From positions 68,636,001-68,700,000 of the forward strand of contig NC_087436.1 of assembly GCF_036321535.1 (NCBI RefSeq): a DNA stretch of 64,000 nt. The letters run 5' to 3'. Both the position numbers and the translations under genes were made by a program. The notes beneath the pieces were generated by a model. The model saw only the letters and a program-made list of their open reading frames with translations. It was not told where the DNA came from and ran no database searches. Each line of letters begins with the position of its first letter. Positions within the stretch are counted from its first letter, which is position 1. Below, in pieces: positions 49,641-61,367 of the stretch. The DNA is from Camelus dromedarius. Taxonomy: Eukaryota.

Positions 49641-49802
49641 CTAGAGACCAGTTTTGGACATGATCCAGTCTCGATAGTATGTCACTCGAGTGTAGACACC
49701 AGGCTTGTTTGGAAGAGCACATTCATCTCCCCAGCTTACAATACCAGCAAGGAACCAAGTGCCTTTATAATCTGCACCAACCAGAGGTCCACCAGAGTCA
49801 CC
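49641..49802 (-). CDS. TMPRSS11C: TMPRSS11C-like last coding exon: catalytic Ser, stop
   Basis: 162 nt encoding [53 protein letters not shown]. Close to the recalled mouse Tmprss11c C-terminus, and its position next to GNRHR matches mouse synteny. Confidence 0.93.
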
Positions 49803-51516
49803 CTAGAAAGAGAAAAAGTATATGCAATTACTGTAATTTAAAGGTGAACACTGCTTATTTTTCTCTTCTACAGTAAAGACAAGGAGATACAGAAGAAGGG
49901 AAAAAATGTATTTCAATATTAAAAATTTTCAACACTAAAAAATTTTTATATTTCAATATTAAGATGTTATTTTAATTATTTTAAAAATATTTCCATTTTG
50001 ATTTTCAATTTTAAAATTTTAAGAATTCAACATTTCAATGTTAAAATTTCAATATTAAAATGATTCTAGTCAAGAATATTTTTGAATTCTATAATCATTT
50101 ATTTAAATCAAACATAAAAGTTTATATCTTGGATATAACAGTACAAAAATTTTAAAAAAGTATGAAAAACTTAAACTGAATAATTACCCAAAAGAGATAT
50201 TTATGATATTGTTGCTAATGCCATAACAGTATGCTGAGGAACTCTCTGATCACCTCCCCAAACTCTCCTATTTTCAGGCATATATTGAGGAAAAAAGTTT
50301 ATATATATCCACCACCAGCACTGGACTACTGCTCTTTAAATCTTGTGGAAACATCCCTCCAGTTTTCAGAATTGTATAATTTGACTAAACTACCCTCTAC
50401 ACTCCATATGGTTTTCATTTACTGATGTTTAGGCCATTTTTCCAGAATGATGGAACACCATGGCATCTGGATTTTCCTGTGCTCTAATCTTTTCCATCAT
50501 CCTGGATAATTTCAACACCCATTTGATCAAACCATAGTCTTTTGGTTTCTTTGATTTTGATTATTTACATATTTATTAAACATTTCCATGTCACTCCTTG
50601 TCATCACCTGGAATAGCTCCACCTCTGAAACACTATTATTAGCATTATGACTGCAGTATTTTTACTCTACTTCTTTTCACTCTACATGTGGCTTCAACCT
50701 CATTAAGAATGCCAACTTTTTGACTCCTCTCTTTTCTCTTACTTCCTATTTCCCATCTTTCTTTATGTGACTATATTGCATAATTTATTCACTACTCTTT
50801 CAGCAAGATTCTTAGCTCCTTACCTTCTTCTTCACTATAATCTGGGCCAACTATACACTGAAAACCATGTTATAAATTTACATCCTCAAACCAACACCTC
50901 TCCCCAACAGTTGTGTGTCCTTAGCCATATTCCTTTCTCATTTTTAAGAGCAGCCAATCCAAATTTTTCTCATTTCATAATTTAAAAAATCATTATTTTT
51001 AATTGTCTAAAATACACATAACATAAAAATTACCATTTTAAGTATATAATTCAATGACCATATTGTGTGATCATCACCACTATTCACTTCCAGAAATTTT
51101 TTCATCTTGCAAAACTAAAATTCTATACCCATTAAACAATTACTTCCCATCATCTCTTTCCTTCAGCTCACCTCCACCAGTTCACATCTGTTTCTACTCT
51201 CCTTTTCAGACAAATGGCTGTATTTGGTTCTTTCCAAGGTTAATCCTCCCATCTGTTCTTTGGATCAAGGACCTTATTCTATGAATAATTGTTTTGTTTA
51301 TTTGTTTTTTCCTAATATGTCTTCATTTTCTCCACTGTCTCTTCCCTCCAGACATACATTTTTTTTTTTTTTTGGTCTTGCCTACCTGAAAAATGACAAC
51401 TTTTCTGGATTTTAAGACTTCCTCTATTGCCCTAATTATCTTCTTTTCATAGCTCTGCAACTTGAAGTAGTAATCTATATTGATGTTTCTAATTTCTCAT
51501 TCCATTCTCAACTTAC

Positions 51517-52670
51517 TTTTTTTTTAATTTGAGTTATAATTAACATAATATTATGTTAGTTTCAGGTGTATAACACAGTAATTTGATATTTTTATACATT
51601 ATGAAATGATCACCACACTAAGTCCAGTTACCATCTGTCACCAAAGTTATCACAATGTTATTGACTATATTCCCTATGGGTATATTATGTCTTCCTTATT
51701 TATTTTATAGCTGGAAGTGTGTACCTCTTAATCCCCTTCATCTATTTCATCTGTCCCCTGCCCTCCCCCACCTCGGTTACCATCATATTGTTTTCTGTAC
51801 CTGTGAGTCTGTTTCTGTTTTGTTTTGTTTTTTAGTTCCACATATGAGTGAAATCATATGGTATTTGTTTTTCTGTCTGACATATTTCAGTTAGTATAAT
51901 ACCATCCAGGTCCATCCATGTTGCTGCAGATGATTTCATTTCATTCTTTTTTATAGCTGAGTAGTATTCCATTGTATACATATTTATACATATCTTTTTA
52001 ATCCATTCACCTATTGATGGACATTTAGGTTTCTTCCACATCTTGACTGTTATAAATAATGCTGTAATGAACATAGGGGTAATTTATCTTTTCAAATTAG
52101 TGGGGTTTTTTTGTTTCCTTCAGATAAATCCGTAGGAGTGGAATTGCTAGATCATATGGTAGTTCTATTTTTAAATGTTTTCCAGTAGTGGAATGTAGTG
52201 GCTTCACCAATTTACAGTCCCACCAACAGTGCACAAGGGTTCCTTTTTCTCCACATTCTTGCCAAAATTTGCTTCTTGTCTTTTTGATAATAGCCATTCT
52301 GACAGGTGTGAGGTAATATTTCATTGCGGTTTTGATTTGCATTTCTCTGATGATTAGCAATGTTGAGCACCTTTTCATATGGCAAGGATAGTATACAACG
52401 GGGGAAAGACAGTCACTTCAAATAAATGGTATTGGGAAAGCTGGACAGCCACATGCAAAAGAATAAAATAACCATTTTCTTACACCATATATAAAAGTAA
52501 ACTCAAAATGGGTTAAAGACTTAATCTGAAACCATAAAAATCCTAGAAGAAAACATAGACAGTAACCTCTTTGACATTGGTCTTAGGAATATTTTTTGGA
52601 TACATCTCCTCAGGCAAGGGCAACAAAAGCAAAATTAAACGAGATCTCATCAAACTAAAAATCTTTTACT
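51517..52670. mobile_element. Older LINE-1 with internal inversion
   Basis: 51517-52380 is an antisense 3' end (poly-T, ORF2 C-terminal [17 protein letters not shown]). 52381-52670 is a more 5' part of ORF2 in sense orientation. Confidence 0.8.
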
Positions 52671-59010: not shown

Positions 59011-59246
59011 GTAATGGTTCTCAATCAGTGACAACTTTGGATACCATCTCCTATCCCCAGGAGAAATTTGGCAGTATCTGGAGACATTTTTGGTTGTTAT
59101 AACTGGGAGAGGCAGTGTTGGGCTACTGGTATCTAATGGGTGGAGGCCAGGAATACTGCTAAAAATCCTGCAATGCACGGGACTGTCCCTGAAACAACGA
59201 ATTATGTGGCCCAAAATGTCAGTAGTTAAGGTTGAGAAACTCTGAG
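59011..59246. mobile_element. MER20-like hAT-Charlie element
   Basis: 'tggttctcaa...tttggcagtatctggagacatttttggttg...gaggccaggaatactgctaa...ggcccaaaatgtcagtag...gttgagaaactctg'. Confidence 0.75.
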
Positions 59247-61328
59247 TTAGAGAAAGGTATTTGTACCAAGAATGAGAACATTTAACTTAATTGTAAAGAT
59301 TAGTCAATCGTTTCAGAGATGTTAATTATATGCGACAAGATGTATCTTGAGATACTCTTTCCTGAGGGTGGAAAAGATTAGAAGCACAGGGGAGGGATGT
59401 GTAGACTTTTAAAAAGGCCTCCACTAGCCCCCTGAAGTCCTTAGGTTTGTATATTGCTTCCGATTCTGGATTGTTCTCTTTGATGAAACCTAAACTTCAG
59501 GTTGCTAAGGCATCCTCTTCATAAACATCATTTAGTTGAAGCAAAGCCTTTGTGGTTGCTATTTTTGAATGAAAGAGTCCTGACATTGACTCACTGACTG
59601 TGACTCCGTTTTCTTTCCCTCTTTCATTCCACTCCCTTATCATGGAAGCTACAGAGGATAAAGCAAACAATGCAGAACCTAAAGGTATAAGGGTTCCTCC
59701 CAATCCTCCCTTCAGTTTGGACAACTCCTAAAGGAAGTTGGCTTTTGCTCAACTTCCTTCAGAGGAAGATGAAAACAAAGATCCTTCTCTTTGGTCTAGG
59801 AGAACCTCCCCTGGGTGACTCTATTTCCCTGTTTTTGCTCTTACACAGGATTTTAATCTAATTTGTATCTATTCAACCAATTTTCATTCTGAGTTTTCAT
59901 TTACTCATGACTGTTGTGTCTGTTAAGCTCTCAGTACCTCTGCAGTGCTACCTTGTTATTACCTCTGCTGAAATCTTACCTGGCACCTTATAGCTTTTGT
60001 TACTCCAAAAGAGGTCATCAGGTAAATTTCAAGGACTTGAGGTAGGTAATGAGGACATGCTGGGTGATACTTTCAGAATCATCAGACAATTTACCAAGCT
60101 CTTCACCGTCCCTACCCTTCTAACATCTATTCCATCACCTATTACTGCACTTAAATACACTTTATATCACATGCCAAACTCTATTCTCTCTTCAACCCTG
60201 TTTGTTTTTTCTTGGTTACCTATCCCTTCTCCCTTTTTATTTAAAGTACAATTAAAATCTCAGCTAAACCAAGTCAAATTCAAGATACTGGTCTGGATGG
60301 TTGTTTAGTGTTTAAGCTGGGGGATGGACAAATTGGCCGATCTCTTTCTTACCACTGCTTTTATTCCTGTGTTGACTACCTCTCTTCTACCAACCTGACA
60401 AATCCTTAGTTGTGGATTTTGAGTGTATCATTACTAAAGTTTTTGATTGATTAAAGTCAGAATAACTGACTTTAAAATCTCTTAGTAAGTTGCTTGAGGT
60501 TTGTTCAGTCAAAATATATCACAGAGAAAGACAATCTAAAACAGATTTGTGTTTCAGTTTTGCCCAGTTTGCTCAGAAATAATTATGATGAGACTGAAGG
60601 ATGGTAAAAGCCATCAGGGTCAGTGTCACCCAGCTCAGGAGGGCGAGTCCTCTAATCCAGTTGCTCCAATCAACCTCAGTCCCCAGATACGAGTGCTTCT
60701 CCTGACAGTGTGCTCTAGGTTGTAGCAACCTTGGGGATCACATTTCCCAGAGCGGCTAGTGCGAAAAGAGAAGCAGAATGCCTTGGCCAGCAGGGAGCTG
60801 CTTGCATGTAAGACAACTGATTTCTCAGCACATAAAACTTGGCTTCTAGGATCAGAATTCCACAGTGAGTTCCTAGACCTAAAGTTTTCATAAGCAGAGT
60901 AGAAAATGCAAACAGCTGACAACTTTTGAGGGCTTCTTATGAGCCCTATACTCTTTTAAGTATTTTACTTGTACCTTCTTTTATCATCACAACTTGGAAC
61001 TGAAGGTTTGAGAAGTTAAATAACCTGTGTAAATTCACCCAGTTAGTAAGTGGCAGATCTGGGGCTCAAAACTGATGTGTAGCTAGTATTAGATTTTAAG
61101 TTCTTAATTATCACTGCTTGTCCTTGGAGCCCCTCTGCTAGTATGGCCTGTGATAATATGTTCCTCATTTTAAATCCATGAGATCAGCCAATTTAAGACC
61201 GTTTACAGTCACCTTAATACAAGTTTCTATTACAACTTTATAGATACACACATTGACTCTCAAGTGAAGTTTTTTTTTTGCCATCCAAGGAAATAAGTTT
61301 TACCAGAAAATAACTGTCATGAACTTAC

Positions 61329-61367
61329 AGGTATGGAGAAGATTTTCTGCTGTCGGCATTGCAATGT
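61329..61367 (-). CDS. TMPRSS11C: TMPRSS11C-like protease, 39-nt linker exon (end of SEA domain)
   Basis: Acceptor ctcttag|, encodes (x)IAMPTAENLLHT(C), donor |gtaagt. Phase joins the next exon to give ...LHTCCGRR. Confidence 0.8.

Follow-up and report, generated by a model that had tools for sequence, protein, structure and literature searches.

The protease-coding exons of a camelid TMPRSS11C orthologue in the dromedary genome

Introduction

The type II transmembrane serine proteases of the HAT/DESC group, namely TMPRSS11E (DESC1), TMPRSS11D (HAT), TMPRSS11A, TMPRSS11B, TMPRSS11F and TMPRSS11G (DESC4), share with TMPRSS11C (neurobin, HAT-like 3 or airway trypsin-like 3 in mouse and rat) a layout combining a SEA domain with a trypsin domain. 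For the paralogue TMPRSS11D, a zymogen scheme with self-activation and shedding has been demonstrated (PMC12065894). The state of TMPRSS11C in human and chimpanzee is one of gene loss within primates, with pseudogene orthologues remaining (PMC3154331), and Tmprss11c appears on a list of human unitary pseudogenes (PMC2864566). Here, we analyze a stretch of 64,000 nucleotides (nt) of Camelus dromedarius (contig NC_087436.1, positions 68,636,001 to 68,700,000 of the forward strand; hereinafter the window), the minus strand of which carries five exons of a protease of this group. We conclude, with a probability of about 0.93, that the camelid orthologue of TMPRSS11C is represented here by its 3′ half, and that it is a HAT/DESC protease passed down from the mammalian ancestor and under purifying selection.

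Results and Discussion

Exon structure and the protease domain

Read along the minus strand, the first of the five exons is a linker exon of 39 nt or 13 codons (IAMPTAENLLHT; 61329..61367), recognized by its AG/GT sites, its frame and its identity to alpaca. A 172-nt exon (57809..57980; Pfam Trypsin, E-value 9.7e-14) follows, encoding the linker cysteine (CGRR), the activation site SGNK↓IAGG and the catalytic histidine (TAAHC). The 260-nt exon (56324..56583; E-value 2.5e-14) supplies the catalytic aspartate (DNDIA), the RACLP cysteine and one N-glycosylation sequon, while the 143-nt exon (55151..55293; E-value 2.9e-07) contributes two cysteines of a conserved pair, the aspartate of the S1 pocket with the alanine after it (VDACQ) and another sequon. 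The terminal coding exon (49641..49802; E-value 4.8e-15) spans 162 nt inclusive of a TAG stop and carries the catalytic serine (GDSGGP). All five acceptors are AG preceded by a pyrimidine-rich tract, and the donors read GTAAGT, GTAAGC, GTGAGT and GTAAAT.

When spliced, the five exons give a stop-free frame of 257 residues closed by the stop, in which the mature domain downstream of the activation site comprises 232 residues with seven cysteines. The Trypsin profile is matched separately by each of the four long exons (E-values of 2.9e-07 to 4.8e-15), and an open frame was obtained in none of 20,000 sets of random segments of the same lengths drawn from the minus strand of the window. Two of the five exons fall within stop-to-stop frames at a floor of 80 residues. 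A preliminary description of this stretch had proposed both an in-frame GT-AG structure with these five exon lengths and a complete trypsin-like domain; the lengths, sites and open frame were all reproduced, and the motifs on which the latter claim was based (TAAHC, DNDIA, GDSGGP, VDACQ and CGRR/RACLP) are all present in the spliced product.

These motifs place the domain in peptidase family S1A (PF00089), with the triad in the order His, Asp, Ser. The S1 aspartate (VDACQGDSGG) is accompanied by a basic activation site with an isoleucine at the new N-terminus, and, in keeping with the HAT/DESC linker, the CGRR cysteine lies ahead of the activation site with the odd one of the seven domain cysteines in RACLP. 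The two would be predicted to form an inter-chain disulfide. The closest solved relatives are TMPRSS11 proteins (TMPRSS11A, 11E and 11D for the 172-nt exon; TMPRSS11E, 11D and 11A for the 260-nt exon), the best of them being 2OQ5, 8VIS/9DPF and 9P1C, and TMPRSS11 proteins are also the closest relatives in the database searches. No TMPRSS11C structure stands among the solved-structure matches.

Searches of the window by tblastn with three full-length orthologues as queries gave no credible match for the transmembrane (TM) and SEA exons. The alpaca record XP_072796974.1 (407 residues) extends over these parts, which in the dromedary lie beyond the window: it has an N-terminal hydrophobic helix (hydropathy peak of 2.99, starting at residue 9) and a SEA domain (E-value 9.9e-31). 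A single open stretch of 211 nt in 61368-64000 was considered as a SEA-type exon and rejected, as it bears no likeness to the orthologues. At the other end, a likely 3′ untranslated region (UTR) occupies 49297..49640 on the minus strand, its end placed at the first AATAAA (49302-49297) found by motif scan, by which a second AATAAA was located at 48600.

Orthology to TMPRSS11C

The spliced product aligns without gaps to the above alpaca protein, named transmembrane protease serine 11C-like, with 254 of 257 residues identical (98.8%); the three differences (H/Q, N/D and V/I) are all conservative. The 53 residues of the last exon are the same in dromedary, alpaca and horse, and full-length matches from other laurasiatherians (carnivores, rhinoceros, horses, warthog and ruminants) show identities of 87.9-91.1%. 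On sequence grounds, the much closer match to alpaca marks the host as a camelid, the case that the preliminary description had considered. A search with the 260-nt exon yielded 74 proteins from 103 candidates, all but one of them mammalian (73), with 48 of the 74 named TMPRSS11C or 11C-like. All three catalytic motifs were recovered by a simple pattern in 59 of the 73 mammalian matches, many of the others being short or partial models.

In a phylogenetic tree of 40 rows, in which the window is represented by 183 residues from three exons, the dromedary sequence is sister to alpaca (support 100/96). Both belong to a 23-row clade (100/98) that includes rat and mouse Tmprss11c along with marsupials and monotremes. 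The dromedary sequence is 75-99% identical to the other members of this clade, as against a protease-domain identity of 45-60% with the mammalian paralogues, whose 14 rows all fall outside it; it reaches 81-83% with rat and mouse Tmprss11c and at most 60% with the paralogues. The paralogue rows were labeled from source names, by-eye likeness to the solved 11A, 11D and 11E chains, and general background on the family. They are few, and several had to be excised from fused models, because the homologue and representative searches were crowded by multi-domain proteases. Phylogeny and the alpaca match thus bear out the TMPRSS11C identity given in the preliminary description. Several orthologues carry the names 11B, 11D, 11E, 11G or DESC4 in their sources, and the two that were checked fall inside the 11C clade.

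At about 81% identity, the dromedary and rodent proteins have in common the catalytic triad, the S1 Asp-Ala pair and an activation-site lysine, but differ around the latter, with HK↓VAGG in rodents and NK↓IAGG in camelids. The 39-nt exon, present in the dromedary, is absent from the mouse model examined and from one rat isoform.

Distribution in mammals and loss in primates

Named orthologues among the database matches come from cattle, buffalo, sheep, goat, deer, pigs, warthog, horse and rhinoceros; from cats, dogs, bears, seals, many bats, rodents, hare, pika, tree shrew, colugo and lemurs; and from afrotherians, xenarthrans, marsupials and the echidna. Since intact orthologues are this widespread, marsupials and monotremes included, the camelid copy represents the ancestral mammalian state and counts as "extra" only by comparison with humans and chimpanzees. 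The earlier proposal that this lineage keeps a functional extra protease therefore stands as regards the intact protease domain but not as regards its being extra. That the human copy is a pseudogene, as was also proposed, agrees with both papers cited above: the orthologous locus is, according to this literature, disabled in human and chimpanzee, whereas it is open in the dromedary. TMPRSS11C is an annotated and broadly kept mammalian gene with a published human loss.

No TMPRSS11C name from simians, tarsiers, whales or hippos occurs among the matches listed, whose member lists are partial, and this by itself is not taken as a sign of loss. Low-quality flags are attached to two sirenian models. 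Further losses may have occurred in whale, hippo, monkey, tarsier or sirenian lineages.

Conservation of the protease domain and RNA-labeled runs

We compared the dromedary sequence with the orthologue consensus using 61 of 77 representatives, in a column-conservation test that stands in for the ratio of nonsynonymous to synonymous substitution rates (dN/dS). Departures from the consensus affect 2 of 121 conserved columns as compared to 14 of 74 variable columns (Fisher p = 3e-5), and the two at conserved columns are not unusual, other mammals having 0-12. This pattern points to purifying selection on the protease domain.

Of 24 listed sequencing runs, 20 contain all or part of a set of words sampled from the last exon and the UTR. 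Five runs labeled as RNA, from two studies, hold 0.63-1.00 of these words as unaligned matches, and four of the five bear a reproductive-system label. Runs with shares of 0.18-0.43, which are RNA by guess only, were not used as evidence.

The activation-site lysine and the 39-nt exon

The activation-site codon at 57943-57945 (minus strand) specifies lysine, as in 61 of the 65 TMPRSS11C models in which the pattern was matched (77 were examined). The remaining four have arginine, and all are from bats (Cnephaeus, Myotis, Miniopterus and Pipistrellus). The paralogues, in contrast, have arginine at this site in 8 of 8 pattern-matched proteins. An alanine after the S1 aspartate favors arginine. Because TMPRSS11C combines a lysine activation site with this arginine-favoring Asp-Ala pocket, its self-activation may be slower or dependent on another protease.

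The 39-nt exon is found in 51 of 65 models with a matched activation region and is missing from the other 14. It can be skipped in frame, and rat isoforms are annotated at 431 and 418 residues, one of them without the exon. It also contributes a second cysteine beside the linker cysteine.

Probable mode of action and role

By inference from the family, TMPRSS11C would be made as a membrane-anchored zymogen in which a short cytoplasmic tail, a single TM helix, the SEA domain and a linker precede the protease. Cleavage at SGNK↓IAGG would expose a new isoleucine N-terminus that shapes the active site, with the protease chain probably staying tethered to the SEA stem through the CGRR-RACLP disulfide. 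The aspartate at the base of the S1 pocket is predicted to direct cleavage after arginine or lysine in substrates near the cell surface.

Mouse neurobin reportedly cleaves FGF-2 in vitro, going by the title of a cited paper. By analogy with rodents, the camelid enzyme would most likely carry out pericellular proteolysis that is low-level and for the most part redundant, in sensory neurons, the spinal cord and reproductive tissue, for example by processing FGF-2-like growth factors, and would not be a main airway enzyme. In mouse, Tmprss11c expression is described as faint in lung and in testis, with none in other tissues (PMC3154331). According to a 2026 preprint, the gene is enriched in MrgprC11+ jugular (vagal sensory) neurons of the mouse, and in a rat model of orofacial pain it is tabulated with the genes that changed. 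Mice lacking Tmprss11c are reported in a review to have no discernible abnormality (PMC10376093).

Alternative readings and relevance to viruses

Assignment to a different HAT/DESC paralogue (11E, 11B, 11D or 11G) might be suggested by the source names of some close matches, noted above, and by the rank of TMPRSS11E as first among the solved relatives of the 260-nt exon. However, the solved structures offered no TMPRSS11C to compete with it, and the colugo "11B" and elephant shrew "11E" rows sit within the 11C clade. With the genuine domains of 11A, 11B, 11D, 11E, 11F and 11G all outside that clade and the rodent Tmprss11c proteins far closer in identity, we regard such an assignment as vanishingly improbable. 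A young dromedary pseudogene, with clean protease exons but damage to the promoter or to an exon upstream, is also very unlikely. It draws on the position of the upstream exons beyond the window, the unaligned nature of the RNA word matches, the flags on the two sirenian models, and the dispensability of TMPRSS11C, which follows from the lack of an obvious knockout phenotype together with the loss in primates. Against it, the frame of alpaca, with three differences in 257 residues, is open over its full length and includes the TM and SEA parts; the conserved columns show no excess change; and the RNA-labeled runs hold the last exon. Several points nonetheless weigh against an intact and selected camelid TMPRSS11C with a rodent-like role. 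An upstream break may lie among the dromedary TM and SEA exons outside the window, and no Camelus TMPRSS11C record occurs among the matches listed, which give 15 of the 59 members of the alpaca-containing cluster per listing. The column test is not dN/dS, so that very recent relaxation or loss would escape it; the word matches in the RNA runs could reflect DNA carry-over instead of spliced transcript; and the tissue role is extrapolated from rodents. We nevertheless favor the TMPRSS11C orthologue under constraint, as stated at the outset.

A further proposal concerns what this orthologue does: TMPRSS11C might act as a protease of the camelid upper airway that contributes to the cleavage of viral fusion proteins, a route lacking in humans. 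In its fuller form, an enzyme that humans lack and that is activated at lysine, as opposed to the arginine usual in the family, would be usefully expressed in that tissue as part of the protease set processing these proteins, and would help explain host differences in protease use. The S1 pocket is trypsin-like, the mouse lung signal, although faint, is present, and the proteases of camel airways are stated to be uninvestigated in a 2026 paper (PMC13056113). Among the paralogues, 11D and 11E can activate influenza haemagglutinin in cell culture, but 11B and 11F did not (PMC4836353); membership in the HAT/DESC group is hence not predictive of viral activation. Moreover, the reproductive-system label of most RNA-labeled runs gives no support to airway expression in camelids, and the enzyme has no camelid-specific features, the gene being common to cattle, sheep, horses and most mammals. 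We found no assay of TMPRSS11C on a viral protein in the literature searched, which was covered mostly as listings and outside subscription papers, and a rhesus study dropped TMPRSS11C as being absent from its data (PMC7848180). Thus, of the viral relevance raised in the preliminary description, the precedent from 11D and 11E holds, while direct support for TMPRSS11C was not encountered in that literature; we consider both forms of the proposal improbable, a long shot at best.

The gene is in itself of little consequence: annotations exist for alpaca and numerous other mammals, and its loss in primates is published. Human-centered protease panels, however, omit an enzyme that livestock, camelids, bats and rodents carry. 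Given that camel airway proteases are unsurveyed, as stated in PMC13056113, TMPRSS11C belongs on the list for such a survey. It would gain greater importance only if camelid airways do express it.

Locus context

A three-exon seven-transmembrane (7TM) receptor gene, which we take to be GNRHR, begins 4.1 kilobases beyond the TMPRSS11C stop on the same strand (32922..45551, minus). Its coding exons at 45551-45030 (522 nt), 34712-34493 (220 nt) and 33166-32922 (245 nt) were delineated from frames and splice sites, with Pfam 7tm_1 matched on all three, and together form an intact frame of 328 codons and a stop. Mammalian type I GnRH receptors end directly after the seventh helix, as does this frame. 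TMPRSS11C accordingly occupies the cluster-end position adjoining the presumed GNRHR, an order likewise known from mouse and a further point in favor of the TMPRSS11C assignment. Farther along the minus strand, a first coding exon lies in a GC-rich island at 17709-17640 (MEGPQAVAAPQGQEASCSSWGAG, followed by a GT donor). It resembles UBA6, and would presumably fit the gene order TMPRSS11C, GNRHR, UBA6.

Open frames of 314, 295, 83 and 106 residues are also present at 9477-11272 and 51832-52417, all on the minus strand. Their translations resemble the C-terminal portion of LINE-1 ORF2 (second open reading frame of the long interspersed nuclear element), and we take them to be truncated LINE copies.

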